This document shows positions 184 through 16,316 of a stretch of 16,316 bases of DNA, in pieces. The number at the start of each line of letters is the position of its first letter. Positions within the stretch are counted from its first letter, which is position 1. Position numbers and translations under genes: made by a program. A model generated the notes under the pieces. That model was not told where the DNA came from. It made no database searches and saw nothing but the letters and a program-made list of their open reading frames with translations. The DNA is from Candidatus Helarchaeota ASGARD archaeon Hel_GB_B (GTDB taxonomy: Archaea; Asgardarchaeota; Lokiarchaeia; Helarchaeales; HEL-GB-B): NCBI GenBank assembly GCA_005191425.1, contig SUPR01000077.1:1-16316 (forward strand). Reading direction: 5' to 3'.

Positions 184-903
184 TTAATTTTTATTTTTTA
201 ATAACTTAATGATTTCATCATTTTTTCTTTTAAATGCCATTGTCTTAAATAAAACCCACAGTATTCTCAATCCATCTTTTAGAACTTTTATATGAGATTT
301 TCCAACTTTTCGTTCATAAAAACTAATGGGTATTTCTTTGATTTTAATACGATTTTTTAATATTTTGACCAACAATTCCATACTAAACCCAAACCTTTTT
401 TCATCAAAAGGTTCAAGTTTTTCAATAATTTCTTTTTTAATAGCTCTAAAACCACTTTGTGAATAAGTAATTTTTTGTCTATAACAAATCCTTATAATCA
501 AGTGGACAAACAATTCACCAATCCTTTTATAGAGAGGAATTGGTTTTTCAATCCAACCAATGGTTCTAGACCCAATAGTGCACTCAACTTCTCCCTTGAT
601 TATTGGTTCTACTAAATTTTTAATCTCTTTTGGGTTATTTTGGCCGTCTGCATCAACAGTGACAATTATATCCCCTGTTGCATGTTTAATTCCATTTAGA
701 ATGGAGGCACCATAGCCCATATTATATTTATTCTTAACTACTTTAGCTCCATTATATTTTGCTTGTTGATATGTGTTATCAGTAGACCCATCATCCACAA
801 CAATTATTTCATGTTCCAATTCTTTAGGTATGGATAACAAAAAATCTTTAATAATTTTTCCTTCATTATAAGCCGGAATAATAATACTAATTTTTTTTTC
901 CAT
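184..903 (-). CDS. GT2 glycosyltransferase, polyprenyl/dolichyl-phosphate sugar synthase (DPM1/GtrB-like) type, 239 aa
   Basis: Motifs IIIPAYNE, VVDDGSTD, NMGYGAS, VTVDADGQ, SQSGFRAI, EIPISFYER..GKSHI..KDG. ATG at 903 is preferred over the track's TTG at 915 because MEKKISIIIP is a typical N-terminus. Confidence 0.9.
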   Translation of the reverse strand: MEKKISIIIPAYNEGKIIKDFLLSIPKELEHEIIVVDDGSTDNTYQQAKYNGAKVVKNKYNMGYGASILNGIKHATGDIIVTVDADGQNNPKEIKNLVEPIIKGEVECTIGSRTIGWIEKPIPLYKRIGELFVHLIIRICYRQKITYSQSGFRAIKKEIIEKLEPFDEKRFGFSMELLVKILKNRIKIKEIPISFYERKVGKSHIKVLKDGLRILWVLFKTMAFKRKNDEIIKLLKNKN

Positions 904-1212
904 ACCTTGAATCAATCCATAAAATTGATTATGATGTTAAATTTTGATTTTATATGTATTTTAAAATGTCATTCTAAACTTTTTGAAATTAATTGTTTTG
1001 TTCTTATATGCTTAATTAAAATTAAAAGTTTTTCCATTAAATATTGTTTGTATTTTTAGGGGATTATTTAATTAACGGAAATAATTTACAAACGATATAC
1101 ATGATTAGGTTAAAATAAAAATGTGATAAAATGCATATATCATTTAAAAATTAGTGTACTAAATAAATAAATAAAAATGAATAAATTAAATGTGTGTAAA
1201 TGAATAATTATC

Positions 1213-1767: not shown

Positions 1768-3381
1768 ATGAGTAAAATAGATATGAGCGACAAAATTGTA
1801 GACATACAAGAGATAAGTGTTAATGCTACATGGAATTGGATATTCTTTATAATATCTACAATTTCGAATATAGCATTAAATATATTATATACGAATTTAT
1901 TAGGCCCGGAGTTATATGGAGAATATAAGATTGTTTTAATGATATATTCATTATTTAATTTATCTACAAATTTAATTAGTGGACTTGCAATAATAAAATA
2001 TGCATCAGCTCATGATAATAAAGAAAAAGGGATAAGTAAAGAATATTTTAAAGTAGGGTTATCAACTATATTGATGATTAAAGCATGTGTATTTATAATT
2101 TATATTTTTATAATTAGTAATATATTTGGTTCAGTATATTCGCCAGAAATAATCATGTATTCTAAAATTTATTTTATAATAATTTTAATTGAGCCTATAA
2201 ATACAATTTTTATAGCGTATAATGTTGCGATTTATAAAATTAAAAGGACGTTTATTATTTCTAGTTTTATACCGTTGTTATCATTAGTATTTTCGATTAT
2301 TGCGTTTTATTTTATTGAGATTTCAATCATGAGTTTATTAATATCAATTCTTTTATCGAATTTAATAATTTCAGTTATTTGGATTTATGTAATAATAAAA
2401 GATAGGCTATTCAGTAGGTTTAAATATTCGGATTTTAAATTATTAAAGCAATTATTTTTATATAGTATACCATTTTTTATTTCATCAGCAATATTTCAAG
2501 GAGTAAATTGGGCGGATGTATTTGCTGTAAGTGTCTATAGTATTGGAAATTCAGAATATAATGTAGGGATATATTCAGTTGCAAGGTCGACATTTATTTT
2601 AATAGTAGGATTGATGGACTCAATAATAGCAACATTGGCGCCAGCATTTGTAAATATATATAAAAAGGGAGACGTTAAAGAGCTGCAAGGTGCAATTGAT
2701 AAAGCGACAAAATATATTTCAATTTTATCGATTTTTTTATCATTAAGTTTAATTATTTTGTCCCCAATGCTTTTCAACTTGATATATCCGGCATATGAAT
2801 TAGCAGTGCCCATTTTGCAAATATTTTTGTTAGAACTTCCGTTAGGATGTACTGGAAGGATGTTATCACAATTAATATCAGCATCAAATAGAAAAATACT
2901 TTATAAATCGTTAGTAATTCCAATAATACAGTCTATAGTAAGTATTGGACTTATTTATTTATTTATGATATATTTTCAATTGGGGTTATATGGCGCTGTT
3001 ATTGGTGTACTTTTAGGAAGAATTTCAGGGGTGTTCTATGAATTATATTTTATGAAAAAAGTGATGAAGGTCGGAATAAAGTTTAAGTATTTTGTTAATC
3101 CACTAATATCCGGGTTAATTACATTATGTATTCTAATATTACCGTATTATATATTTAATTTTCTTGATATTTATAGAACATTCAATTTGATTTTAAAGAG
3201 TGCTATTTTGTTTTTTGTATCATGCATTTTTATGATATTATTTTCGATCGTTTTGATTTTATTAAGGACGTTTGATGATTATGATTATAAAAATCTTAAA
3301 ATTTTCTGTCAGAAGCGCTATTTATTGACTATTTTTGGTAAGCCAATATTATATTTAATTAATAAATTTAAAAAGAGTTGA
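1768..3381 (+). CDS. Oligosaccharide flippase, Wzx/MATE-like (MOP superfamily), 537 aa
   Basis: Many hydrophobic segments; N-terminal LYTNLLGPELYGEY, central ADVFAVSVY...VGIYSVA, APAFVNIYKKGD, FQLGLYGAVIG, which fit polysaccharide-flippase patterns; glycan-cluster context. Alternative start at ATG 1783. Confidence 0.88.
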   Translation: MSKIDMSDKIVDIQEISVNATWNWIFFIISTISNIALNILYTNLLGPELYGEYKIVLMIYSLFNLSTNLISGLAIIKYASAHDNKEKGISKEYFKVGLSTILMIKACVFIIYIFIISNIFGSVYSPEIIMYSKIYFIIILIEPINTIFIAYNVAIYKIKRTFIISSFIPLLSLVFSIIAFYFIEISIMSLLISILLSNLIISVIWIYVIIKDRLFSRFKYSDFKLLKQLFLYSIPFFISSAIFQGVNWADVFAVSVYSIGNSEYNVGIYSVARSTFILIVGLMDSIIATLAPAFVNIYKKGDVKELQGAIDKATKYISILSIFLSLSLIILSPMLFNLIYPAYELAVPILQIFLLELPLGCTGRMLSQLISASNRKILYKSLVIPIIQSIVSIGLIYLFMIYFQLGLYGAVIGVLLGRISGVFYELYFMKKVMKVGIKFKYFVNPLISGLITLCILILPYYIFNFLDIYRTFNLILKSAILFFVSCIFMILFSIVLILLRTFDDYDYKNLKIFCQKRYLLTIFGKPILYLINKFKKS

Positions 3382-3392
3382 ATTTATAATTT

Positions 3393-4517
3393 TTAGACAA
3401 TTTTTTTATAAGTTTCTACTATTTTTTCAGCAATTTTCTTGCTATTAAAATTGTTAATAGCGTATTCTCTCGCATTTTTAGACCATATATTTAGATCTTC
3501 GTTTAAGAGACGGTTAATTGCATCTGCCAATTTCATAAAGTTCATAGGAGGGACTAATATTCCTGAATATTCATGCTTGACTACTTCGGGGATTGAGCCA
3601 GACCAGGTAGAAATTACGGGAGTTCCGCATGCCATTGCCTCGATAAATACAAAACCAAATTGTTCGGTCCAAAAGTGGGTTGGAATACTGGGTACGACCA
3701 TTATATCTGCTATATTATATAGATCAGGAGTTTTTTCATAGGCAACGTTCCTTAAGAACCTAATATTTTTATGTATTCCTAACTTAAGAACCAGGTTATT
3801 GATATTTGTGCGTTCCGTTCCATTTCCTACAATTATAAGTATTAGATTTTTATGGCTCTTCAATAATTTGTAGAATGCATAAATTAGACTATAAATTCCC
3901 TTTTCCCAGACCAAGCGTCCTATAAAAAGAATTATTTTTGAATTTTCTGGAATATTAAGAAGTTTAAGCAATTTAGTATTTTTTGTTTTTGGAGCAAATG
4001 TTTGGATGTTAACACCACAAGGGATAACAGAAATTTTATCCTCAGAAACACCTTCAATGATTAAAGATTCTTTAGCGCGATTAGTGATTGCAATAAAATG
4101 CTTGGCATTTTGAAAAGTAGATTTTATGATCTTTAGAAATGGCTTTTTATGATAGTTAAAAGGAATATTTTCCCAAATTGTAACTATAGTAGGTTTACCA
4201 GATTTGATTGCTTGGTAAGTAAATATATGATATGTTTCTGCTGTATGGAGTAAGTCCATATCCTTTACAATTTTATTAAAACCCTTTAAAAAATAATCTA
4301 AATTTAATTTCTTTTGTATGTACAACTTTAAATATGGTATTTTATTAAGATAACTTAATTGATGGGTTTCAATTATTGGAAATTTTATACCTTGGATGTT
4401 GTAGAAATGTTCTTTGGGGACTATTCCCACAACATTAATTCCAAGTTCCGGGACGAACTCAAAAGTCTGCATTTCCCACTTATTAAAAAATGGTCCGCGA
4501 ATAATTCCAACTTTCAT
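3393..4517 (-). CDS. GT4 (GT-B fold, retaining) glycosyltransferase, 374 aa
   Basis: Motifs IPCGVN, ILFIGRLVWEKG, IVGNG, E-X7-E (EQFGFVFIE)AMACGTPVI. Start moved from 4559 to ATG 4517 (MKVGIIRG), which has GGTG 8 nt upstream and removes the overlap with rfbH. Confidence 0.92.
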   Translation of the reverse strand: MKVGIIRGPFFNKWEMQTFEFVPELGINVVGIVPKEHFYNIQGIKFPIIETHQLSYLNKIPYLKLYIQKKLNLDYFLKGFNKIVKDMDLLHTAETYHIFTYQAIKSGKPTIVTIWENIPFNYHKKPFLKIIKSTFQNAKHFIAITNRAKESLIIEGVSEDKISVIPCGVNIQTFAPKTKNTKLLKLLNIPENSKIILFIGRLVWEKGIYSLIYAFYKLLKSHKNLILIIVGNGTERTNINNLVLKLGIHKNIRFLRNVAYEKTPDLYNIADIMVVPSIPTHFWTEQFGFVFIEAMACGTPVISTWSGSIPEVVKHEYSGILVPPMNFMKLADAINRLLNEDLNIWSKNAREYAINNFNSKKIAEKIVETYKKIV

Positions 4518-4525
4518 AACAAAAA

Positions 4526-4529
4526 CACC
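4526..4529 (-). promoter_or_regulatory. Shine-Dalgarno-like GGTG; similar GGT(G) motifs at 7277-7280(-), 9169-9172(-) and 13176-13179(+), and GGAG at 15190-15193(+)
   Basis: G-rich motifs 5-8 nt upstream of the inferred starts in otherwise G-poor DNA. Confidence 0.55.
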
Positions 4530-4533
4530 AATT

Positions 4534-5850
4534 TTATAAATTATCAAAAAATTCGTCAAAACACTTTTTCATATATTCTCGCATTTCATTAGTGATACCA
4601 GGGTAAATTCCAAACCAGAATGTATTATTCATAATATAATCAGTATTTTTAAGGTCATCAATAACTTTATATTCTATTTCAGAATATGCTGGTTGTCTTA
4701 AAATATTGCCGGAAAAAAGAGGACGAGTAGCTATTTTCTTATTTTCAAGAAAGTTTACAATATCATTTTTAGTAAATGATACACCCTCTTTTATTGTAAG
4801 AATAAACCCAAACCAAGCAGGACTTGCTTTAGGAAGCGATTTTGGTAAATAAAAGTATTTGGAGTATTTTTTAAAATAATTATAGAAGAAATTAAAATTA
4901 TTTTTCCTTTTTTCAATAAAATTTGATAATTTTTTTAACTGTTCAACTCCTATTGCAGGTTGCATATCGACCACTTTTAAATTATATCCAATATGAGAAT
5001 AAATATATTTATGGTCATAACCAAAAGGCAATTTTCCCAATTGCCAACCAAATCTTTTACCACAAGTATTGTCATGTCCGGGTTCACACCAACAGTCCCG
5101 GCCCCAATCGCGGAATGATTTGATGATTCTATATAAATTTAGGTCATTAGTAATTAATGCGCCACCTTCACCCATTGTGATGTGATGTGCAGGATAAAAA
5201 CTGAAGGTTGAAATATCTCCGAATGTACCTACAAATTTATCATCAAATTTTGACCCTAATGCATCACAACAATCTTCAATTAAAAATAAATTATAGTCTT
5301 TTACAATTTCTAGTATTTTTTCTATATTAAATGGGTTTCCTAGAGTATGAGCTAAAACGATTGCTTTTGTTTTGTTAGTGATAACCTTTTGAATATCATC
5401 TACCTTAATATTATATGTCCCAATTTGAACATCTAAGAATACCGGGATTGCATTAATTTGAATTATTGGGTTTATTGTTGTTGGGAATGCTGCTGCAACT
5501 GTAATTATTTCGTCATTTCGTTTGATCCGTCGGTCCTCAAGTTTTGGCGATGTTAATGCTGAAAGTGCTAGAAGATTAGCAGACGAGCCAGAATTTGTGA
5601 GGACTGTATATTTGGAATTTAATAATTTTGAAAATTCATATTCAAATTTTCTTGCAAATCTACCTTCAGTTAACCAGAATTCTAAGGCAGAGTCCACTAG
5701 AGAAATTATTTCTTTTTCATCATATACTCTACCTGCGTATGGAACTTTAGATTTTCCAGGAATGAATTTAGCACTAGCTTTTTTTAGATTATATAATTCT
5801 TTTATTTTTTCATATATGATATTTTTAATTTCTTGTTCTTTTGAAATCAT
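4534..5850 (-). CDS. rfbH: CDP-4-keto-6-deoxyglucose 3-dehydrase (E1; RfbH/DdhC/AscC family), PMP and [2Fe-2S] dependent, 438 aa
   Basis: Motifs FIPGKSKVPYAGRVYD, WLTEGRF, NSGSSANL, EDCCDALGS, SFYPAHHITMGEGG (His at the Lys position of DegT-type aminotransferases), GRDCWCEPGHDNTCGKRF...YDHKY (C-X-C-X7-C plus His). Confidence 0.96.
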   Translation of the reverse strand: MISKEQEIKNIIYEKIKELYNLKKASAKFIPGKSKVPYAGRVYDEKEIISLVDSALEFWLTEGRFARKFEYEFSKLLNSKYTVLTNSGSSANLLALSALTSPKLEDRRIKRNDEIITVAAAFPTTINPIIQINAIPVFLDVQIGTYNIKVDDIQKVITNKTKAIVLAHTLGNPFNIEKILEIVKDYNLFLIEDCCDALGSKFDDKFVGTFGDISTFSFYPAHHITMGEGGALITNDLNLYRIIKSFRDWGRDCWCEPGHDNTCGKRFGWQLGKLPFGYDHKYIYSHIGYNLKVVDMQPAIGVEQLKKLSNFIEKRKNNFNFFYNYFKKYSKYFYLPKSLPKASPAWFGFILTIKEGVSFTKNDIVNFLENKKIATRPLFSGNILRQPAYSEIEYKVIDDLKNTDYIMNNTFWFGIYPGITNEMREYMKKCFDEFFDNL

Positions 5851-6731
5851 TTTTTCAGTTCACTTATTTTATTATACATTTTTTTTAATCCTACAATAGG
5901 GGTAGACATTTTAACATTTATAGTCCTAAGTAATTTATCAATTTTCAAGCCCGCATTGAGTGGCCTTGCAGCTACTTGACCTAGATCCTTCGTATAAACA
6001 GGTATTATTAATGTTGGGTCTAGATCAAATATATCAGCGGCAATTAAAGAAAACTGATAACGTGAAATTAATTCACTACCTACAACATTGAAAATGCCAA
6101 TTTGATCTTTTTGGACTAATTGTAAAGTAGCTTCAGCTAGATCTTCTACATATGTAGGAGTTCCTATTTGGTCTTTGGGAACTTTCAATATTTTATGATC
6201 TTTAAGTGTATCTATTAAACGATATATAAAGTTTTTTCTATTTCTTTCCCATCCATAGACAATTGTAGTCCTAATTATAAGATAATTTGATAAATTAGAT
6301 TTAATATTATTTTCAGTTTCTAATTTAGCTTTTCCATAATTATTAAGAGGATTTGGTAAATCAGATTCGGAATAAGGACCATTTTTACCATCAAAAATAT
6401 AGTCTGAAGAATAAAAAACTAATTTGATGTTGGACTTTTTAAGTAAATTAATTATATTTAAAGGCCCTTTAACGTTATATTTCCAACAGTCATCAAAATT
6501 GATTTCACAATATTCTACATTTGGCATTGCGGCAGGTAATAAGATTACGCTTGGCTTGAATTCAGAAATGATTGAATTTAATTCATTTTGGTCTAAGAAA
6601 TTTAAGTGTACCAGGTCTTTTGTTTTATTTGAATAGTAAGTTCCTAATATATCAAAATTTTTTGAAAATTTTTGAAATAAAGAGTACCCTAGGAACCCTG
6701 AAGCACCGATTATGAGGATTTTTGTATTCAT
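5847..6731 (-). CDS. RmlD-like NDP-4-keto-6-deoxyhexose 4-reductase (extended SDR), about 294 aa; nucleotide specificity uncertain
   Basis: Motifs IIGASGFLG, AAMPNVEYCE, YSSDYIFDG, PNPLNNYGKAK (YxxxK), IIRTTIVYG, DQIGTPTY. Its TGA overlaps the rfbH ATG (ATGA, 5847-5850). The start is probably ATG 6731; the track gives 6755. Confidence 0.88.
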   Translation of the reverse strand: MNTKILIIGASGFLGYSLFQKFSKNFDILGTYYSNKTKDLVHLNFLDQNELNSIISEFKPSVILLPAAMPNVEYCEINFDDCWKYNVKGPLNIINLLKKSNIKLVFYSSDYIFDGKNGPYSESDLPNPLNNYGKAKLETENNIKSNLSNYLIIRTTIVYGWERNRKNFIYRLIDTLKDHKILKVPKDQIGTPTYVEDLAEATLQLVQKDQIGIFNVVGSELISRYQFSLIAADIFDLDPTLIIPVYTKDLGQVAARPLNAGLKIDKLLRTINVKMSTPIVGLKKMYNKISELKK

Positions 6732-6820
6732 TAACTCTTCAAACTCCAACATCAAAATTTAAAATACAAAATATGGCAGTTAAAAAGTCATATAATTTGT
6801 TTAATTGTTATTATAATTAT

Positions 6821-7270
6821 TTAACCATGTTTTATATTCCAATTATAACCAATTTCCTTATCAAAAGGGTCTATTCTAACAATTTCATTAGGGTCATAAG
6901 GGTGGGTAGCGCAGTTAGCAACTATGGCTTTTTTATTACCAACTGCTTTAAATCCATTAATAATACCAGGTGGTACTTGAACTAAACAATAATTATCTTC
7001 CCCGATAAAAATTTCTTGAAGTTCTTTATAGGTAGTTGAACCTTTTCGATTATCATATAAAACTAATTTAATATTGCCCACAATGACAGCATAATTTAAT
7101 GTCATTTCTTTATGCAAATGCCAGCCTTTTATTGCATTTGGAAATATACATGAAAAATAAATTTCTCCAAATTGTTGAAAATGAGGATCAGTTTTTTTAA
7201 GCATGTGCATTACGATACCTCTTTCGTCCATTATCTTTTTTAATGGTATTATTTTAACGCCTTCAATCAT
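6821..7270 (-). CDS. RmlC-like cupin NDP-4-keto-6-deoxyhexose epimerase, short type, 149 aa
   Basis: Motifs DERG, EIYFS, IKGWHLH, LYDNRKGSTT, VPPGIINGF, YNW. ATG 7270 has GGTG 6 nt upstream; the track's start at 7282 is a TTG lying upstream of that motif. Confidence 0.88.
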   Translation of the reverse strand: MIEGVKIIPLKKIMDERGIVMHMLKKTDPHFQQFGEIYFSCIFPNAIKGWHLHKEMTLNYAVIVGNIKLVLYDNRKGSTTYKELQEIFIGEDNYCLVQVPPGIINGFKAVGNKKAIVANCATHPYDPNEIVRIDPFDKEIGYNWNIKHG

Positions 7271-7294
7271 AAAATACACCAATTCAATAATTAA

Positions 7295-8386
7295 TTATTT
7301 AATCCAATTTATTTTTCGTTTATTAGCAATTGAAATGAATTCATTAATTTGACTGACATCAAAATCATAGTCCGGTGTTTCTTGTTTATACCAATCAATA
7401 GTAAATTTAACAGCTTCATCAATGGTAAGTATAGGTCTCCAATTCAAATAAGTATAAGCTTTACTTGTATCTAATTTTAATATTTTTGTTTCGTGTAAGA
7501 AATTATCTGACGAGAGATTTTGCCATTTACCTGACCCCCAAATTTTTATGATTTTATCGACTAAGTTACTAACTGGTATAAGGGAATCATTATTAGGACC
7601 AAAATTCCATGCGCCAAGTAATTTTTTATTATTTTCTATTTTTGAAGCTAATAACAAATATCCTCCAAGTGGGTCAAGGACATATTGCCATGGGCGAATT
7701 GAGTTGGGATTTCTAATATCAATTGGTTCGTTCTTTTTCAGAGCAAGAATACAATCAGTAATAAGTCTATCAGAGCGCCAATCTCCACCACCAATTACAT
7801 TGCCAGCTCTGACGGTACAAATTGATTTATTATTAATTTTTGTATCATTTGTGTTAAAAAAAGAACTATTATAAGCAGATACTACCAATTCACAGCAAGC
7901 TTTACTAGAACTATATGGGTCATATCCACCAAGGGAGTCATTTTCTCTATATCCCCAAATCCATTCTTTATTTTCATAACATTTATCACTTGTAATAATA
8001 ACACCAATCTTAACAGATTCAGTTTTTCTAATACATTCTAATAGGTTTACGGTTCCACCAACATTAGTATCATAAGTCAATTTTGGGTCAGCATAGGAAG
8101 CCCTGACTAGAGCCTGAGCAGCAAGATGAAACACAATTTCTGGTTTATATTTTTTAAATATATCAAATAATGTTTGAAAATTTCTGATATCACCAATTAT
8201 ACTTGTAATTTTTTCATCTAATTTAGCTTTAACAAAATTATCATTAGAAGTATATGGGTCTAATGAGTATCCAATTACTTTAGCACCCAATTCATTTAAC
8301 CAAATAGATAGCCATGACCCTTTAAAACCAGTATGACCAGTAATTAAGACTTTTTTCCCATTAAAAAAGTTGTTGAATAGTTTCAT
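7295..8386 (-). CDS. rfbG: CDP-glucose 4,6-dehydratase, 363 aa
   Basis: Motifs LITGHTGFKGSWL, FHLAAQALVRASY, TNVGGTVNLLE, ITSDKCYENKEW, DPYSSSK, RAGNVIGGGDW, IRPWQYVLDPLGGYL, WNFGP. ATG 8386 overlaps the rfbF TGA (ATGA); the track start is 8395. Confidence 0.96.
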   Translation of the reverse strand: MKLFNNFFNGKKVLITGHTGFKGSWLSIWLNELGAKVIGYSLDPYTSNDNFVKAKLDEKITSIIGDIRNFQTLFDIFKKYKPEIVFHLAAQALVRASYADPKLTYDTNVGGTVNLLECIRKTESVKIGVIITSDKCYENKEWIWGYRENDSLGGYDPYSSSKACCELVVSAYNSSFFNTNDTKINNKSICTVRAGNVIGGGDWRSDRLITDCILALKKNEPIDIRNPNSIRPWQYVLDPLGGYLLLASKIENNKKLLGAWNFGPNNDSLIPVSNLVDKIIKIWGSGKWQNLSSDNFLHETKILKLDTSKAYTYLNWRPILTIDEAVKFTIDWYKQETPDYDFDVSQINEFISIANKRKINWIK

Positions 8387-9162
8387 TTTTCCCATATTCT
8401 CCAGAAAGCCTTATTTTCCTTCCATAATTTATTTAAGTAAACATAATCTCTTTCATTATCCAAGCAATTCCATAAACCTTTATGCTTATAGACCATTACT
8501 TCATTATCTTTTGTTAATTCAATTAAAGGACCATGCTCAAAATCACAATCTTCATCATCTGTTAAATAATCGAGTAATTTTTTATTAAATACCATAAACC
8601 CCCCGTTAATTAATCCTTTTGAGGTTTGTGGCTTCTCTTCAAAAGAGATTAGTTTATTTTGTTCCTCAACAAGCTCTCCAAATCTTGAGGGGGGATGTAC
8701 TCCTGTTATTGTCAATATTTTTCCATGGGATTCATGAAATTTGATCAATTCTGGGATATTTATATCCGCCAGTCCATCCCCATAAGTTAACATATTATTT
8801 TTATCTGTGATAAATTTTTCAGCTCTTTTTAATCGTCCACCTTTTAATGTATTCAATCCAGTATCTATTAGTGTTATTTTCCAGTTAGGTCGTTCAGAAT
8901 TTTTATGAAATTTGATAGCATTATTAGATAAGTCAATTGTGAGGTTATTATTTAGTAAATCGTAATTAACGAAGTAATTTTTAATAATTTCCCCTTTTAC
9001 TCCAAGTAAAATAATAAAATCATTATATCCATAGTAAGAATATATTTTCATTATATGCCATAAAATTGGTTTATCTCCGATATTAACCATTGGTTTTGGG
9101 ATAAGGTTAGTCCTTTGGCCGAGTCTAGAGCCCCAGCCGCCTGCAAAAATTATGACTTTCAT
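8383..9162 (-). CDS. rfbF: Glucose-1-phosphate cytidylyltransferase, 259 aa
   Basis: Motifs AGGWGSRL, PKPMVNIGDKPILWHIMKIYS, DTGLNTLKGGRL, LTYGDG, FEEKP, INGGF, YKHKGLWNCLD; directly upstream of rfbG; AGGT 6 nt before the ATG. Confidence 0.95.
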   Translation of the reverse strand: MKVIIFAGGWGSRLGQRTNLIPKPMVNIGDKPILWHIMKIYSYYGYNDFIILLGVKGEIIKNYFVNYDLLNNNLTIDLSNNAIKFHKNSERPNWKITLIDTGLNTLKGGRLKRAEKFITDKNNMLTYGDGLADINIPELIKFHESHGKILTITGVHPPSRFGELVEEQNKLISFEEKPQTSKGLINGGFMVFNKKLLDYLTDDEDCDFEHGPLIELTKDNEVMVYKHKGLWNCLDNERDYVYLNKLWKENKAFWRIWEK

Positions 9163-9368
9163 GCAATTACCTAATTAATAATAATTTAAAAAATATTGAT
9201 ATTCTAAATTTAAGTGATTTTTGAAATTTTTATTATTTCATGGCGCATTCAATTCATTATGAAAATATTTTTAATATTTTTATTTTTTATGGTTTTTAGT
9301 TATCTAAATAATTTTTATGAAAATTTGAAATGAAAAAGATTATCCATATTAATTTAATGTGAAAAATT

Positions 9369-10424
9369 ATGGAATATAAAAGAGTAGCTGTTTTAATTTT
9401 AACATATAATAATAAAGTTATATTAGAAAATCTATTAAAATCTATTAAGGAAAAAACACATTATCCAAATTATGAAATATTTGTAATAGATAATGGAGGG
9501 AGTGATGGGACAGATGAATTAATTAAGAAGCAATATGATTGGATTAAATTAATTAAAATTATTGATAATAAAGGGTTTATAGGGGGATTTAATGAAGGAT
9601 TTAAAAAAGTTGAGAAAAAATATGATTTTTATTTATTTTTGTGTGATGATATTTATATTTTAACAGAAAATTGGTTAAAAAAATTAATAAAGGAATTTGA
9701 TATAAATGAAAATTTAGGTGCTATTTTTCCTGTAGAAATTATACCCCCAGAATTTGGAGAAGCATGTAGTAAAGAAGAGAAATTTAACCGTATTAATATT
9801 TTTTTAAAAGAGCAAATTAATATTTATGAAAATTGGGCTAATACAAAATCACAAGAAAAGATTGCTCTTGGCCATGTCTTGGAAGGCCCTTGTTTATTAA
9901 TAAGAGCGGAAGTATTAAAATTAACGGGATTATTTGAGCCGCTTTTATTTCCAGCTTATTGTGAAGATACTGATTTAGGGTTGAAAATATTAAGAGCTGG
10001 ATATATTACTGCTAAAGATCCAAACGTTGGGATTATACATTTTCATTCAGTCAATTTTAGTTCATTATTACAACAATTTGAAAAACGTCTATTACTTGGC
10101 AGAAATAGAATAATTCAAGGTTTACTCCATAGAAAAGTAATAGATTTAATTAGGCAATTTTGGTTTGAATTTAAAACTTTTATTCATGATATTCTTAAAC
10201 TAAAGATCAATTTTTTATTATATTTGAAAAGTTATGTGTATATAGTAAAAAATCTTAAAAAAATCCTTCAAGCTCGTAAATTCAGGCAATTATTGTTCAA
10301 AAATGCAAAACACAAAGAATTTTTTATAGAATTCAGGAATAAAAATCTACATAAAATTATTTTCCAACCACCAATGTTTGATGCTAAAAAGATAATTTTA
10401 TGTCAAAATAAAGTAGTAAATTAA
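9369..10424 (+). CDS. GT2 glycosyltransferase, WbbL/rhamnosyltransferase-like, 351 aa
   Basis: Motifs VLILTYN, VIDNGGSDGT, NKGFIGGFNEG, LFLCDD, GPCLLIR, GLFEP, AYCEDTDL. Confidence 0.88.
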   Translation: MEYKRVAVLILTYNNKVILENLLKSIKEKTHYPNYEIFVIDNGGSDGTDELIKKQYDWIKLIKIIDNKGFIGGFNEGFKKVEKKYDFYLFLCDDIYILTENWLKKLIKEFDINENLGAIFPVEIIPPEFGEACSKEEKFNRINIFLKEQINIYENWANTKSQEKIALGHVLEGPCLLIRAEVLKLTGLFEPLLFPAYCEDTDLGLKILRAGYITAKDPNVGIIHFHSVNFSSLLQQFEKRLLLGRNRIIQGLLHRKVIDLIRQFWFEFKTFIHDILKLKINFLLYLKSYVYIVKNLKKILQARKFRQLLFKNAKHKEFFIEFRNKNLHKIIFQPPMFDAKKIILCQNKVVN

Positions 10425-10470
10425 AGTTAAAATAGCTTAAAATTCGATAATTAAAATAGTATGAACAAAA

Positions 10471-11100
10471 ATGATAGATAATTATCAAATAGTTAAAGGA
10501 TCGGCACACCATAAAATCCTTGAATTTGTTGAAAAAAATAAGAAGATATTAGATGTTGGATGTGGAAATGGACGATTAGGTCGATATTTAAACAAGTCCA
10601 GTAAAGAACTAGTTGGAATTGATATAAGCCGTAAAGCATTAGATGAAGCCAAACCTTTTTATGATAAAGTATTATTAATAAATTTGGAAAAAAATTTGAA
10701 TGATCAGTTTCAAATAAAATATTTCGATATTATTATTTTTGCAGATATTCTTGAACATTTGAAATACCCGCAAAAACTTTTAATCTCTATGAGAAAATTC
10801 CTTAAAGATGATGGATATATTATTACAAGTATCCCGAATGTTGCTTTTTATAGAAATAGACTTAATTTATTGTTAGGTAAATGGGATTATAAAAAGGAAG
10901 GAATCCTAAATATAGATCATTATAAATTTTTTACCTTAAAAACAGCTAAAGATTTAATAAATAAATCAGGGTTTCGAATTATTTCTACAAAATATTCAAT
11001 TACTGGTTCTAAATTAACAGATATGTTGAGAGGTTTTTTATTGAAATTTCCAAATTTATTTGCTTATCAGTTTATTTTTAAAGCTAAAAAGAAAACATAA
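10471..11100 (+). CDS. Class I SAM-dependent methyltransferase of the type found in glycan clusters, 209 aa
   Basis: Motifs ILDVGCGNG (motif I), VGIDIS, FDIIIFADILEHL, ITSIPN, GIL...H.KFFT. Confidence 0.88.
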   Translation: MIDNYQIVKGSAHHKILEFVEKNKKILDVGCGNGRLGRYLNKSSKELVGIDISRKALDEAKPFYDKVLLINLEKNLNDQFQIKYFDIIIFADILEHLKYPQKLLISMRKFLKDDGYIITSIPNVAFYRNRLNLLLGKWDYKKEGILNIDHYKFFTLKTAKDLINKSGFRIISTKYSITGSKLTDMLRGFLLKFPNLFAYQFIFKAKKKT

Positions 11101-11130
11101 ATTAATACATTAGTTATTTGGTAATTTCGT

Positions 11131-12285
11131 GTGAATAAAATGAGAATTGCGTTTTTTTCCCCTATATTACGATATGGCGGTGATGTGACAAATGCTTTTG
11201 AAATTGCTAAAAAATTAGCAAATGATCATAAAGTGGTTTTCATTAATAGTGAGATTTCTAAAAAATATCAGCGGTTAAAGAAAATTCCGTTTAAAGTCAA
11301 ATTTCTTAAGGATATTAAATATCCCTTATTAAATTTTATATCACCATATTTTTATTTACCAAGATATTATGAAATTTTCCAGGATTTTGATATTATTCAT
11401 TCGTCTACCCCAAGATTGAATATGTTGGCTTCAAAAATCAAAAAAAATCTTGGTATACCATTTATTTATTCGACCCATATGGTACCACGTTTTTCATTTA
11501 ATAGTTATCAAATCGAAAATACATTGTTATATTTTTTAGTATCAGATTGGTTGAGAAGAGGAATAAAAAATGCAAATGCAGTAATTACGCCCACTAATTT
11601 CGTCCGGAATTTATTAAAAAGAAAGTTTAATGTAAATTCAATAGTAATACCAAATGGTATAAATAAAAGTTTATTTTTACGGTCTCCAGATCAGAATTAC
11701 AAACGGAAATTAAATATGTTAAATAAGCGAATTATTTTATTTGTTGGACAGATTAGAGAAAGTAAAGGTATCCATATTTTGATTAAAGCATTAAATATAG
11801 TAAAACAAAAAGTTCCTAATATTATTTTATTATGTATAGGTGAATCTCCATCACCAAAAAATAACAAATATTATTTATTTTTGAAGAAATTGATTAAAAA
11901 ATTAGGTTTAGAGCAATCAGTTAAGTTCTTAGGTTCGATACCTTTTGAGCAATTGATATCTACCTATTCTATTGCAGATTTATTTGTATTACCATCTCTT
12001 TCTTATGAATATCAAGGAATAGTACTATTAGAAGCGATGAGCTCAAATGTTCCCGTTGTTGCATCGGATTCAGGAGGTATTCCAGATATGATAATAGATG
12101 GTAAAAATGGACTTTTATTTAAAAATGGAGATTATATTGAATTAAGTGATAAAATGATAGAGATCTTGGAAAATTCAGATTTAAAAAATAATTTGATTAA
12201 ATGTGCCAATGAAATAATCGATAAAAAATACAAATGGGAGATAATAGTTAAAAAAACATTAAAAATATATAAAAAATTTGCTTAG
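11131..12285 (+). CDS. GT4 glycosyltransferase, about 381-384 aa
   Basis: Motifs MRIAFFSP..YGG, FDIIH, VIPNGIN, ILFVGQI..SKG, ADLFVLPS, E-X7-E (EYQGIVLLE)AMSSNVPVV. Start is GTG 11131 or ATG 11140. Confidence 0.92.
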   Translation: MNKMRIAFFSPILRYGGDVTNAFEIAKKLANDHKVVFINSEISKKYQRLKKIPFKVKFLKDIKYPLLNFISPYFYLPRYYEIFQDFDIIHSSTPRLNMLASKIKKNLGIPFIYSTHMVPRFSFNSYQIENTLLYFLVSDWLRRGIKNANAVITPTNFVRNLLKRKFNVNSIVIPNGINKSLFLRSPDQNYKRKLNMLNKRIILFVGQIRESKGIHILIKALNIVKQKVPNIILLCIGESPSPKNNKYYLFLKKLIKKLGLEQSVKFLGSIPFEQLISTYSIADLFVLPSLSYEYQGIVLLEAMSSNVPVVASDSGGIPDMIIDGKNGLLFKNGDYIELSDKMIEILENSDLKNNLIKCANEIIDKKYKWEIIVKKTLKIYKKFA

Positions 12286-12305
12286 TTGAAATATGTTAAT
12301 AAGAT

Positions 12306-13016
12306 TTATTTTAATACAAATCGTCTTGTCGATTTAATTAAATAATTTAGAGTATATTTATAATTTATACGCGACCAGAATATGGACAGCAAATAGTATA
12401 AATCAATTGTTATTCCCAGAATTATAATTGCAACAAATACATTTATCGATTGAAAAATATTTAGAATTAGACTTAAATTAAAGAAAATATAGTGATGTGA
12501 AATAAATATAGTTAAAGATAACTTTCCTAAGTAATATGTACCTCTAATATTGAACTCTTTATATTTTATTATTATCAGACCAATAATAGCATAAGTAAAA
12601 CTGATAAAATCTCCTATTAAAAATATTCCAATTAAAATAAAAATGGGGATCAATATTAATAAGTATTTGATTTTTAATTTTTTAAGATAATAACACAATA
12701 TTTTGTTTATAGCAATTATCTGAAGTATACCATAATAGAAGAAAATTCTTACTCGGTCAATTATCAACCCCAAAGTTGTTAAATTTAATATACACCCCAT
12801 TAAAAACAAAACAGAAGATTCGACAAGGACTCCTTTAATTTTACTTTTAGAATAATAAGAAGCCATCCCTGAGGCAAATAAAAACAGCGGAATTGCAAAT
12901 TTACCAATTATTATCGGAATAAGATAATTTCCCGATAACCATAAAATCACATGAATAATGAGCATACTATAAGTTGCAAGTTCTCTAATTAAATCAATAA
13001 AATTGTTGTGAGTCAT
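12306..13016 (-). CDS. Small integral-membrane acyltransferase-like protein (AT3/DUF1624-HGSNAT-like), about 236 aa
   Basis: Largely hydrophobic. First helix IDLIRELATYSMLIIH carries R-X10-H; also PLFLFASG, YGILQII and GKLSLTIFISH. These match transmembrane acyltransferase patterns (family knowledge). Start ATG 13016; the track gives TTG 13022. Confidence 0.7.
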   Translation of the reverse strand: MTHNNFIDLIRELATYSMLIIHVILWLSGNYLIPIIIGKFAIPLFLFASGMASYYSKSKIKGVLVESSVLFLMGCILNLTTLGLIIDRVRIFFYYGILQIIAINKILCYYLKKLKIKYLLILIPIFILIGIFLIGDFISFTYAIIGLIIIKYKEFNIRGTYYLGKLSLTIFISHHYIFFNLSLILNIFQSINVFVAIIILGITIDLYYLLSIFWSRINYKYTLNYLIKSTRRFVLK

Positions 13017-13136
13017 TTTCAATACTGTGTTCTTTTTTATTATTTTAAGATATCATATCAATTACAATTAAAATATAAAAACAATTTTAATGAGATAGAT
13101 TTAAGTCTAATTGATTAACAGAAATTATTTATTAAA

Positions 13137-13158
13137 TTAATTGAATTTATTCAATTAA
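13137..13158. promoter_or_regulatory. Perfect 22-bp inverted repeat TTAATTGAAT-TT-ATTCAATTAA, candidate operator for the divergent acyltransferase / GT2 genes
   Basis: Read directly: 10-bp arms, 2-nt spacer, ending 26 nt upstream of ATG 13185. The regulatory role is inferred. Confidence 0.5.
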
Positions 13159-13184
13159 AAATTAAAATATTAAATAGGTTTAAA

Positions 13185-14129
13185 ATGGCTGCTAAAAATC
13201 AAACCCCTCTTCTTAGTATTATTGTTTTGACAAACCCATTTCGGCCTGTTCAATTAACATTAGATTGTATTAGGTCAATATCTGAGCAAGATTATTCTAA
13301 AATTGAATTAATTGTTGTTGATAATAATTCAAGTTCAAAAGATCTTAGAAAACTGGATTTACATTTGGAAAATTATCAAAATAGATTTACAGATATCCTT
13401 TTAATTAAAAATAAAAAAAACTATGGATATCCTAAAGGAAATAACATAGGGATCATAAATTCCACAGGAAGCATTATTGCTATAATGAATAATGATATTG
13501 AATTAGAACAAGATTTAATCAAAAAATGTGTTAATCTTTTAACTTCAAGAAAAGATGTTGGAGTTGTTGTACCTAAGATTGTTTATTGTTCAAATCCAAA
13601 TATTATTTGGTATGCAGGAGGAATTATTGACCCTAGATATAGATTAGTTTGTAGACATCGTGGTCTAATGAAAAGAGATACAGGGCAGTTTGATGATATT
13701 TCTGAAACTGATTATGCTAATGGTTCATGTTTTTTTATTAAAAGAGAAGTATTTAAAAAAGTAGGATTATTTGATCCATTTTATTTTCTCTATTATGAAG
13801 AAGCCGATTTAAATTATAGAATAAAATTAGCTGGATATAAAATTATATATATAGGAAATACGAAAGTATTTCATAAAATTAAACATACAGAGATATCAGC
13901 CTTTCAATTATATTTATATATAAGAAATAGGTTCATATTTGCAATTAAAAATTTTAAAGAAATAGACCTATTGGTATTCTTAACCACACAATTTTATGCC
14001 ACAATTATAGAATTTCTTAACCAATTCCCAAGTAGTATGAAAATTAGATTGCTTTTTAAAGGAATAATAGATGGAATAGTATTTGGAACTAGAAAAAGAA
14101 AAAACTCTAGAATTGTTAAATTATTATAA
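13185..14129 (+). CDS. GT2 glycosyltransferase, WbbL-like, 314 aa
   Basis: Motifs LSIIVLT, LIVVDNNS, NYGYPKGNNIG, IMNND, NGSCFFIKREVFKKVGLFDP, LYYEEADL, IRNR; AGGT 5 nt upstream of the ATG. Confidence 0.92.
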   Translation: MAAKNQTPLLSIIVLTNPFRPVQLTLDCIRSISEQDYSKIELIVVDNNSSSKDLRKLDLHLENYQNRFTDILLIKNKKNYGYPKGNNIGIINSTGSIIAIMNNDIELEQDLIKKCVNLLTSRKDVGVVVPKIVYCSNPNIIWYAGGIIDPRYRLVCRHRGLMKRDTGQFDDISETDYANGSCFFIKREVFKKVGLFDPFYFLYYEEADLNYRIKLAGYKIIYIGNTKVFHKIKHTEISAFQLYLYIRNRFIFAIKNFKEIDLLVFLTTQFYATIIEFLNQFPSSMKIRLLFKGIIDGIVFGTRKRKNSRIVKLL

Positions 14130-14132
14130 TTA

Positions 14133-15203
14133 GTGGAAATATTGATGAATAATGTTAAAGCACCTAAAGTTTCAATATTAATGGTATTAAAAAATAATGC
14201 AAATACAATAAAAAAATGCGTAAAATCAATTTTAGATCTAAATTTCAAAGATTTTGAGTTGATAATCCTTGATAACAATTCAGATGATAATTCACTTGAT
14301 TTTGTAAAAAGTTTTTCAGATCCAAGAATACAGATTTTTTCACTTAAGAGAAATTTAGGCTATGCTGCAGGAAATAATTATTGCTATCAGCGTTGTGTAG
14401 GGGAATGGATATTAGTAGTTAATCCAGATATTATAGCAGATAAAAATTTAATTGATGAACTACTGAAAGCATATAATTTTATTTCAAAATCAATTGGTAA
14501 TGAAAAAATAATCTTATCTCCAAAAATTATTTTATTAGATAACACTATTAACTACATTGGAGGAAATATAAATATCTTAGGATTTTCTACTGTTAAAGGG
14601 TTAGGAAAAATAGATAATTATAAAAAGAAATATGAACTTACCGACTTTTTTTCTGGGTGCTGTTTTTTTATCAAGACAAAGCATTTTAAAGCGTTAGGAG
14701 GATTTGATCCATATTATTTTATGTACCATGAGGATGTAGATTTTTCTTTAAGAGCAAGATATGACATGTTTAAAATTTTTGTAATCAATACCACAAAAAT
14801 TAAACACATGAAACATCTGGAAGACTTTAAACTGACAAATTTAAAATATTACATGATCGAACGAAATAGATTATTAACATTAATTAAAAATTCACCATTT
14901 ATACCATCTACAATTTTAACAATTCTTTTTTTCGAGCCTATTTTAATTATACAGTCTTTTTTTATTCATAAATCAAGAATGAGGGCTCTTATATATGTAA
15001 ATATATTCAAAGTCTTTAAAAAATATTTGAAATATAATAAATTTGTCAAAAAAAATTTAATTTTAAAATTTAAAACTAATTTTCAAGATTTTGATCAATT
15101 TATTGGGTCAAGACTAGTGTCACTTATAATTCTAATTTTGAATTCGTATATTAAAATTATCTATAATTTATTTTGGAAAAAGTTATATCGGAGAAGTGAA
15201 TAA
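14133..15203 (+). CDS. GT2 glycosyltransferase, WbbL-like, about 352-356 aa
   Basis: Motifs PKVSIL, IILDNNSDD, NLGYAAGNN, VVNPD, SGCCFFI, GGFDPYYFMYHEDVDFSLR, ERNR. Start is GTG 14133 or ATG 14145. Confidence 0.92.
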   Translation: MEILMNNVKAPKVSILMVLKNNANTIKKCVKSILDLNFKDFELIILDNNSDDNSLDFVKSFSDPRIQIFSLKRNLGYAAGNNYCYQRCVGEWILVVNPDIIADKNLIDELLKAYNFISKSIGNEKIILSPKIILLDNTINYIGGNINILGFSTVKGLGKIDNYKKKYELTDFFSGCCFFIKTKHFKALGGFDPYYFMYHEDVDFSLRARYDMFKIFVINTTKIKHMKHLEDFKLTNLKYYMIERNRLLTLIKNSPFIPSTILTILFFEPILIIQSFFIHKSRMRALIYVNIFKVFKKYLKYNKFVKKNLILKFKTNFQDFDQFIGSRLVSLIILILNSYIKIIYNLFWKKLYRRSE

Positions 15204-16316
15204 AAATCAGGGTCTGTCTAATAGATGATTCAGTAGGTCTTACTGGAAGCGGAATTTATTTATATTTCATAGCCAAAAAGTTATTGGAAAAAAATAATCA
15301 AGTATTTTATATTCATCAAGTGGATACCAAGCATATAAATGATTTAAAATCATCTAATAATTTTAAGTCCATAAAAATCGGTGAAAAATTTCATAATAAA
15401 CTTCTAATGCTAAATAAATTGAGTTATATTACACCCTTAAAATCTGTTATTAAAGAATTATTAGAAAAAAATGATATTGATTTAGTGCATTTTAATGAAT
15501 CATTTAATCCATATTTTTTAAGTATAAATCCGACTTTAAACAAATTTAATGTTAAATCGATAACTACAGCGCATGGTTGTGCTAATTATGAATCTGTAAA
15601 AATTGTTTCACATCCATTAGTGGGTTTATTGGAAAAAGTTTCACATTTGATTTATTATCCACCGCTTTTATCTTACGAAATATTGAATTTACCAAAAATA
15701 CCACACTATATCTGCGTTACCAAGGGAGTTAAGAAGCAATTAACAAAAATAGGACGGAAATTTTGGTATAAAGATTTTTCACCTAAAATGCGATATATTC
15801 CAAATGGAATTGACCTTAAAAAATTTTCATTAAGAACACCTGATGATAAATATTTAAAAGAATATAAAAAGACCGAGAATGAAATAATAATTTTGTTTTC
15901 AGGAGGTTTAGTAATCAGAAAATTACCATTTTTGTTAATTAAAAGTTTTTATTTGCTTTTGAAAAAAGTACAGAATGTACGATTAATTTTTGTAGGGGGA
16001 GGAAGATTATTAAATTTATGTAAAATTCTTGTACATTCTTTAGATATTCAAGATAAAGTGAATTTCTTGGGATATGTAGAACACAATGAAATTCCAAAAA
16101 TATTATCAATTGCAAATATTTTTGTATTACCTTCAATTTACGAAACTCCAGGAATTAGCTTATTAGAAGCAATGGCGATGAAAGTCCCTGTAATCGCATC
16201 AAATTTACCAGATATTAATGAATTGATAATTAATAAAAAAAATGGGATATTATTCGACAATGATAATGATGCTATAAAAAATTTATATAAAAAACTAAAA
16301 GAATTGATTATGGACG
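15200..16316 (+). CDS. GT4 glycosyltransferase, 3'-truncated by the window edge, at least 372 codons, probable ATA start; absent from the ORF track
   Basis: Hand translation is open from 15200 to the end: IKIRVCLIDDSVGLTGSG...DIDLVH...SITTAHG...YIPNGID...ILFSGGLVIRK...FVGGG...NIFVLPSIYETPGISLLEAMAMKVPVIAS (E-X7-E). An in-frame TGA at 15197-15199 bounds the 5' end. Confidence 0.92.
   Translation, partial: MKIRVCLIDDSVGLTGSGIYLYFIAKKLLEKNNQVFYIHQVDTKHINDLKSSNNFKSIKIGEKFHNKLLMLNKLSYITPLKSVIKELLEKNDIDLVHFNESFNPYFLSINPTLNKFNVKSITTAHGCANYESVKIVSHPLVGLLEKVSHLIYYPPLLSYEILNLPKIPHYICVTKGVKKQLTKIGRKFWYKDFSPKMRYIPNGIDLKKFSLRTPDDKYLKEYKKTENEIIILFSGGLVIRKLPFLLIKSFYLLLKKVQNVRLIFVGGGRLLNLCKILVHSLDIQDKVNFLGYVEHNEIPKILSIANIFVLPSIYETPGISLLEAMAMKVPVIASNLPDINELIINKKNGILFDNDNDAIKNLYKKLKELIMD

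Follow-up and report, generated by a model that had tools for sequence, protein, structure and literature searches.

A six-gene operon on the 16,316-nucleotide window analysed here, a complete contig (C159, 16.3 kb) of the Asgard archaeon Candidatus Helarchaeota Hel_GB_B, probably makes mainly a cytidine diphosphate (CDP)-linked 3,6-dideoxy-L-hexose and passes it to a surface glycan, ascarylose being a more likely product than its C4 (L-lyxo) epimer. The operon occupies positions 3393-9162 of the minus strand in the order rfbF, rfbG, RmlC-like cupin gene, RmlD-like reductase gene, rfbH and family 4 glycosyltransferase (GT4) gene. An earlier note, made from the sequence alone, had placed all six genes in this order and proposed a CDP-ascarylose-type product. 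Open reading frames and family scans bear out the gene order, and the L-sugar logic of the proposal (an epimerase together with a 4-reductase, and no RfbJ, RfbS or RfbE) stands as well; between ascarylose and its C4 epimer, sequence cannot choose.

The operon and its E1 enzyme

Genes were identified using a listing of open reading frames and Pfam and NCBIfam profile scans against curated cut-offs. The rfbF gene (ddhA; 8383-9162, minus strand, as for all six genes) encodes glucose-1-phosphate cytidylyltransferase, which makes CDP-glucose (TIGR02623, 322.8 bits; cut-off 300.25). Its product is 82% identical to the orthologue in L108, a 336-kb Helarchaeota contig that is collinear over the entire window at 71-78% nucleotide identity. 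Overlapping rfbF by 13 nucleotides, rfbG (ddhB; 7295-8395) encodes CDP-glucose 4,6-dehydratase (TIGR02622, 475.3 bits; cut-off 278.45). It is followed by the gene of a short RmlC-like cupin, the proposed epimerase, which belongs to a subfamily found in CDP cassettes (6821-7282; PF00908, 57.8 bits; cut-off 27). The likely start of this gene is the ATG at 7270, giving a 149-amino-acid product. The next gene encodes an RmlD-like, NAD(P)H-dependent 4-ketoreductase of a CDP-cassette clade (5847-6755; PF04321, 197.4 bits), with a true start probably slightly downstream of the TTG at 6755. The rfbH gene (ddhC, ascC; 4534-5850; NF011936, 689.5 bits; cut-off 423) overlaps the reductase gene by 4 nucleotides and encodes E1, the pyridoxamine 5'-phosphate (PMP)- and [2Fe-2S]-dependent CDP-4-keto-6-deoxyglucose 3-dehydrase. 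The final gene (3393-4559; PF00534, 150.8 bits, and PF13439) encodes a GT4 glycosyltransferase, a candidate transferase of the dideoxy sugar, whose orthologue at the equivalent position in L108 is 70% identical.

RfbF, RfbG and RfbH all scored above their curated equivalog cut-offs, and the six proteins are 68-85% identical to their L108 orthologues. Since adjacent genes overlap or lie no more than 65 nucleotides apart, the arrangement is consistent with one operon. Family scans of the window found no further short-chain dehydrogenase/reductase (SDR) that might be RfbJ, RfbS or RfbE, and neither RmlA nor RmlB, in agreement with both absences claimed in the earlier note.

The window E1 matched the E1 of Yersinia pseudotuberculosis (PDB 3BCX) with an E-value of 4e-158. 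In a residue-by-residue alignment to 3BCX, the equivalents of His220, Cys193, Cys251, Cys253 and Cys261 are all kept, and the motifs YPAHHITMGEGG, EDCCDAL and RDCWCEPGHDNTC were found. The protein has the histidine that replaces the aminotransferase lysine, as well as the [2Fe-2S] ligands in the spacing C-x57-C-x-C-x7-C that marks the E1 of the core pathway. As His220 and the four cysteine ligands are kept, the enzyme is a redox-dependent E1 and not of the ColD type; a ColD-like, cluster-free dehydrase was ruled out by the presence of all [2Fe-2S] ligands.

The textbook partner of E1 is E3 (RfbI/AscD), a fusion of a plant-type ferredoxin with a flavin adenine dinucleotide (FAD)- and NAD-binding domain resembling ferredoxin-NADP reductase (FNR). 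Neither the window, by family scans, nor L108 within 10 kb has an E3 gene. A survey of 80 rfbH loci from other genomes (L019-L098), in which open reading frames were scanned for a ferredoxin cysteine motif and an FNR-type motif, found no ferredoxin-FNR protein within 10 kb of rfbH at any locus. His220 is kept at all 80 loci and the four [2Fe-2S] cysteines at 79. Judging from these loci, rfbH without an adjacent E3 gene is the usual situation. SpnQ, an E1 homologue, works with general ferredoxin or flavodoxin reductase pairs (PMC8987622), and on this precedent a general low-potential donor likely re-reduces the window E1 in place of E3.

In environmental genomes the gene most often found beside rfbH, at 32 of the 80 loci, encodes a thiamine-diphosphate enzyme of about 600 amino acids, which is not a 4-reductase. 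Genes for C-methyltransferases and split transketolases are likewise frequent there, and such neighbours hint at branched-chain (yersiniose-like) CDP sugars. In another Asgard genome, an rfbH-like frame (L122; G148:C200:54-860) carries one TGA and one TAA stop, probably as a pseudogene or through faulty assembly.

Predicted product and recurrence of the cassette

We infer the following order of steps, in which the electron donor, the C5 epimerisation, the C4 stereochemistry and the acceptor are predictions. RfbF would synthesise CDP-D-glucose, RfbG would convert this to CDP-4-keto-6-deoxy-D-glucose, and E1, using PMP and its [2Fe-2S] cluster, would remove the 3-hydroxyl, being re-reduced by a general donor such as ferredoxin or flavodoxin and not by a dedicated E3. 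The short cupin would then invert C5 of the CDP-4-keto sugar, and also C3 where the 3-hydroxyl is present. After C3 deoxygenation, C5 is the sole stereocentre adjacent to the 4-keto group, so any RmlC-type enzyme would yield the C5 epimer only. Reduction at C4 by the RmlD-like reductase would give CDP-ascarylose (3,6-dideoxy-L-arabino-hexose) if its stereochemistry is RmlD-like, and the L-lyxo epimer otherwise. The sugar would probably be transferred to the surface glycan by the GT4 encoded last in the operon. Some CDP-6-deoxy-L-hexose may arise as a side product, because the cupin-reductase pair also works in modules that lack E1.

The earlier note had suggested a synteny search for rfbF-rfbG-cupin-rmlD-rfbH; the five-gene set does recur in archaeal and bacterial contigs. 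The five sugar genes occur in identical order in metagenome-assembled genomes (MAGs) of Patescibacteria (L031), a deltaproteobacterium (L039) and Bacillota (L059), in the Helarchaeota contig L108 and in L162, labelled Altiarchaeota after the NCBI label on its cupin. L047, an Anaerolineae MAG, and L161, a Promethearchaeota genome, carry them in another order. The literature search found no paper on 3,6-dideoxyhexoses as constituents of archaeal glycans; the cassette itself is nevertheless not special to this archaeon, since it recurs in contigs of Helarchaeota and Promethearchaeota and in that labelled Altiarchaeota.

Seven of the sampled contexts carry cupins at least 72% identical to that of the window. 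Four of them include an E1-type DegT protein, and the other three are four-gene rfbF-SDR-cupin-reductase modules without E1. The pair is found with and without E1 and can therefore be regarded as a portable unit for both 6-deoxy and 3,6-dideoxy CDP sugars, which also makes plausible the E1-bypass branch that the earlier note had proposed.

Several observations count against a 3,6-dideoxy-L-hexose as the main product. The proposed pathway has a gap at E3, which the earlier note overlooked: the textbook E1 requires E3, yet no E3-type gene was found in the window or detected in the genome, where PF00175 (NAD_binding_1) and PF00970 (FAD_binding_6) have no match at a bin completeness of 93.7%. The cupin misses the cut-off of canonical RmlC (TIGR01221, 37.9 bits against 155.75) and the reductase that of its own equivalog (TIGR01214, 192.4 bits against 224.05). 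When the cupin was aligned to Escherichia coli RfbC, the catalytic histidine (in GWH) was matched and Lys72, Tyr132 and Asp169 were without counterpart. The existence of the cupin-reductase pair without E1 means that it need not act on a 3-deoxy intermediate. Finally, a review of archaeal N-glycans from 2024 makes no mention of 3,6-dideoxyhexoses (PMC11407970).

The occurrence of the pair without E1 also bears on another possibility, rather unlikely in our view, that the operon has two products. The cupin and reductase would then act mainly on the 3-hydroxylated CDP-4-keto-6-deoxyglucose, giving a CDP-6-deoxy-L-hexose of the L-rhamnose or 6-deoxy-L-altrose type, while E1 would divert part of the intermediate to a 3,6-dideoxy sugar finished by the same reductase, with or without epimerisation and possibly in the D-series (paratose or abequose type). 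Cupins 72-74% identical to that of the window do occur in the E1-less four-gene modules, and a single gene set of Campylobacter jejuni HS:41 yields both CDP-6-deoxy-L-altrose and CDP-D-fucose (PMC12369002). Against this, E1 is encoded within the operon by a gene that overlaps the reductase gene, and the five-gene unit is kept across several phyla, which would be hard to explain if the neighbouring enzymes did not process the product of E1.

Most copies of the cassette (L031, L039, L047, L059, L161-L163, L169 and L170) have, in the dehydratase slot, an SDR of about 325 amino acids that is only about 30% identical, where compared, to the TIGR02622-type RfbG of the window. The dehydratase that accompanies the portable pair in the window and L108 is therefore a canonical one of the DdhB type. 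In L161 the CDP-sugar cassette is immediately preceded by genes of the LuxC and LuxE families (acyl-protein reductase and synthetase; 2502-4897). Among 301 sampled Asgard genomes, only 7 have rfbH above the cut-off; the other Asgard copies reach no more than 55% identity and come without a cassette of the window type. The distribution is patchy. The rfbH gene is common in archaeal genome data, and was detected in contigs of Methanobacterium, Methanoregula and Micrarchaeia.

The cupin, the reductase and their nucleotide context

The window cupin carries the motifs GWHLHKE, NGFKA and THPYD. It matched PDB 3EJK with an E-value of 1e-30. In a profile search epimerases scored 1e-13 to 1e-9, and the ketoisomerases QdtA and FdtA 2e-7 and 5e-6. 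Its AlphaFold2 model (predicted local distance difference test score, pLDDT, 96.9) superposed on 3EJK with a template modelling score (TM-score) of 0.94 and 42% identity in the structural alignment. The top fold matches that follow 3EJK are solely RmlC-like 3-, 5- and 3,5-epimerases of 4-keto sugars (TM-score 0.80-0.86), and there are no ketoisomerases among the top 50 PDB matches. Counterparts of Lys72, Tyr132 and Asp169 are missing in both types of short cupin, those of CDP and those of deoxythymidine diphosphate (dTDP) operons, as is the C-terminal segment of RfbC. The most conserved residues of the short-cupin family are K48, W50, H53, D73, R75 and N119; the second histidine of the motif (H53) is kept in 89 of 99 sequences and the first in 58. 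The catalytic residues of RmlC-type enzymes do not predict 3- versus 5-specificity (PMC9095892), and Agl13 of Haloferax volcanii, an archaeal RmlC demonstrated experimentally, is comparably short (gene of 471 bp; PMC4022621). Taken together, sequence and model indicate a protein that is RmlC-like in fold and probably in chemistry, yet no canonical RmlC. The description of the gene product as an RmlC-like cupin therefore holds for PF00908 membership and fold, and has to be qualified at the active site, where the histidine base alone aligns.

These residues also leave some room, though very little, for a cupin that is not an epimerase, being either similar to 3,4-ketoisomerases or inactive, in which case the product would be a different, undescribed CDP sugar. 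The missing Tyr/Lys/Asp set, the H-x-H-K motif shared with FdtA and QdtA, a weak match to the FdtA family (PF05523, 24.8 bits) and the stronger conservation of H53 relative to the first histidine all favour this. The PF00908 score exceeds the FdtA score, however, and a paralogue with the same motif fills the RmlC slot of rhamnose operons. A 3,4-ketoisomerase would, moreover, have no role on a 3-deoxy sugar. The ketoisomerase role that the H-x-H-K motif had raised was rejected as disfavoured by the profile and fold rankings, which place epimerases well above ketoisomerases.

A more far-reaching idea, which we regard as speculative and quite unlikely, starts from the short cupins of CDP cassettes, for which 3EJK is the sole structure. 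They would be mechanistically distinct C5 epimerases and, with their own reductase clade, would make 3,6-dideoxy-L-lyxo-hexose. This sugar, displayed on an Asgard surface, would be the sixth 3,6-dideoxyhexose of nature and one so far unseen, and an archaeal ferredoxin would drive E1 directly. These cupins have a conserved H53 and a histidine or tyrosine at position 125, and lack the RmlC Tyr/Lys/Asp set.

The assignment of the pair to CDP and not dTDP sugars can be judged from the rest of the genome. Contig C165 (L099) carries at 13254-15433 a short cupin-RmlB-RmlD operon, truncated by the contig end, in which RmlB scored 469 bits with TIGR01181, and contig C132 carries an RmlA-like gene. The cupin-RmlB-RmlD arrangement recurs in 10 Asgard genomes sampled from the same class (L132-L134 and L136-L142), and its RmlC slot is filled by a cupin of about 150 amino acids without the canonical RmlC tyrosine, lysine and aspartate. 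The C165 and window cupins, the sole two PF00908 matches in the genome, are 44% identical. In the cupin tree, copies adjoining rfbF, rfbG or rfbH, from archaea and four bacterial phyla, form one clade (support 100/100) on a long stem. The two types also differ in their motifs, NGFKG and T-x-P-H/Y-D in the CDP type versus HGFKA and TELYNY in the dTDP type. The reductase has the motifs GASGFLG (GxxGxxG) and YGKAK (YxxxK) and is 39% identical to the dTDP-context RmlD of Hel_GB_B; in the reductase tree the CDP-cassette clade (100/99) stands apart from the clade of dTDP-context RmlD (97/95). Because the genome has its own dTDP operon and the window copies fall in separate CDP-context clades, a dTDP-only role of the pair is disfavoured, and there is good comparative evidence that both proteins serve the CDP pathway, as the earlier note had held.

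Least probable of all is that the pair is a second dTDP-L-rhamnose set, or one for another nucleotide, present in a CDP operon by chance while an unlinked reductase finishes the CDP intermediate: both proteins do match families named after dTDP enzymes (PF00908, PF04321 and TIGR01214), and sequence does not reveal nucleotide specificity, but a cupin-RmlB-RmlD operon is already present in the genome, the window copies belong to clades found, within the sample, solely beside rfbF, rfbG or rfbH, and neither the window nor the 20 kb of L108 syntenic with it encodes RmlA or RmlB.

Genomic surroundings and known systems

The window contig comes from a 3.54-Mb genome bin (28% GC; completeness 93.7%, contamination 4.9%), which has the archaeal marker aCPSF1 on a different contig. 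The closest homologues of the window cupin are in 'Candidatus Helarchaeota archaeon' and Promethearchaeota MAGs (85% identity). From these homologues and the collinearity with L108, the contig is judged to be Asgard archaeal and not a contaminant.

The operon is embedded in a surface-glycan cluster. Outside the operon, the contig encodes a flippase, an AglJ-like family 2 glycosyltransferase (GT2), three more GT2 and two more GT4 enzymes, an S-adenosylmethionine (SAM) methyltransferase and a membrane acyltransferase-like protein. The first GT2 (184-915, minus strand; PF00535, 109.6 bits) resembles AglJ and dolichyl-phosphate-hexose transferases (TIGR04182, 132.6 bits, below the cut-off), and the host glycan is probably dolichol-linked. 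A Wzx/MurJ-type polysaccharide flippase (1768-3381, plus strand; PF01943, 48.1 bits) is convergent with the operon and has the same position in L108. An AT-rich intergenic region (9163-9368), presumed to contain promoters, separates rfbF from the divergent plus-strand GT2 gene. From there to 16315, Pfam and NCBIfam scans identified genes for GT2, SAM methyltransferase, GT4, acyltransferase-like membrane protein, GT2, GT2 and a GT4 cut at the contig end, all on the plus strand except the acyltransferase-like gene. L108 matches this part (9369-16315) collinearly, with 71-73% of nucleotides identical. The methyltransferase gene (10471-11100, plus strand) and the membrane-protein gene (12306-13022, minus strand), the product of which gave a weak HGSNAT/acyltransferase-like match, are both kept in L108, and they suggest a glycan that is additionally O-acylated and methylated.

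A non-coding gap of 850 bp with about 17% GC (916-1767) separates the AglJ-like GT2 gene from the flippase gene. At this site L108 has a gene for a GalE-like SDR of 379 amino acids. Relative to L108 the gene has thus moved or been replaced, its 86%-identical orthologue in Hel_GB_B lying on contig C36 (C36:41953-43089). As a candidate for an rfbJ-, rfbS- or rfbE-like gene just beyond the contig ends, this extra SDR of L108 was rejected for its GalE-like nature and its orthologue on C36. An SDR past the other end was likewise dismissed, as it has no close orthologue in Hel_GB_B (best match 37%).

3,6-Dideoxyhexoses are considered rare sugars that belong to nematode pheromones and a few O-antigens of Gram-negative bacteria. 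If the predicted product is right, the surface of an Asgard archaeon, an organism related to the ancestor of eukaryotes, would bear such a sugar, and the sugar repertoire of archaeal glycans would be widened. The pathway type is already known, and the window represents a new host and not a new system; the advance is incremental. The window departs from known systems in its archaeal host, its lack of E3, its gene order and its non-canonical cupin. More generally, the data point to E1 enzymes commonly encoded without a nearby E3 gene, to a portable cupin-reductase pair common to 6-deoxy and 3,6-dideoxy CDP pathways, and to separate epimerase and reductase pairs for dTDP- and CDP-sugar operons within one genome.

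The closest known system is the CDP-ascarylose module of Y. pseudotuberculosis O:5a, AscA-F (ddhD-ddhA-ddhB-ddhC-ascE-ascF; PMC5399914). As in O:5a, the first three enzymes are equivalog-level matches, E1 has identical His220 and cysteine ligands, and, matched by gene type, epimerase-type and 4-reductase-type genes replace prt, abe or tyv, with flippase and glycosyltransferase genes also present (PMC5399914). Unlike O:5a, the window lacks E3 (AscD/DdhD), the epimerase and reductase genes precede that of E1, and the host is an Asgard archaeon.

The closest assayed CDP route with a cupin and a reductase is that of C. jejuni HS:41 (HS41.21-HS41.17), comprising a CDP-4-keto-6-deoxyglucose 3,5-epimerase and a promiscuous C4-reductase, in which the epimerase sets whether a D or an L product is formed (PMC12369002). 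The window shares with it the CDP-glucose route and a cupin-type epimerase and C4-reductase predicted to act on a CDP-4-keto-6-deoxy sugar (PMC12369002). Unlike the window, HS:41 lacks E1 and retains the 3-hydroxyl, its epimerase, at 26.6 kDa with tag, is the larger one, and a pyranose/furanose mutase, absent from the window, follows.

With RmlC and RmlD (E. coli RfbC and RfbD; H. volcanii Agl13 and Agl14), the window pair shares both folds, the reductase motifs and the expected chemistry, epimerisation beside a 4-keto group and then 4-reduction. It differs in scoring below the TIGR01221 and TIGR01214 cut-offs, in having no counterparts of the RmlC Lys/Tyr/Asp residues, in its CDP operon and in its separate clades. 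PDB 3EJK, a structural-genomics entry named 'dTDP sugar isomerase' from Desulfovibrio desulfuricans G20 that is not known to have been assayed, belongs to the same short cupin subfamily as the window cupin and informs on the fold only. The window E1, finally, resembles SpnQ, the thymidine diphosphate (TDP)-4-keto-2,6-dideoxyglucose 3-dehydrase of spinosyn biosynthesis, in being an iron-sulphur E1 homologue without a dedicated E3 (PMC8987622); SpnQ differs in taking a TDP substrate, in an antibiotic pathway of an actinomycete.

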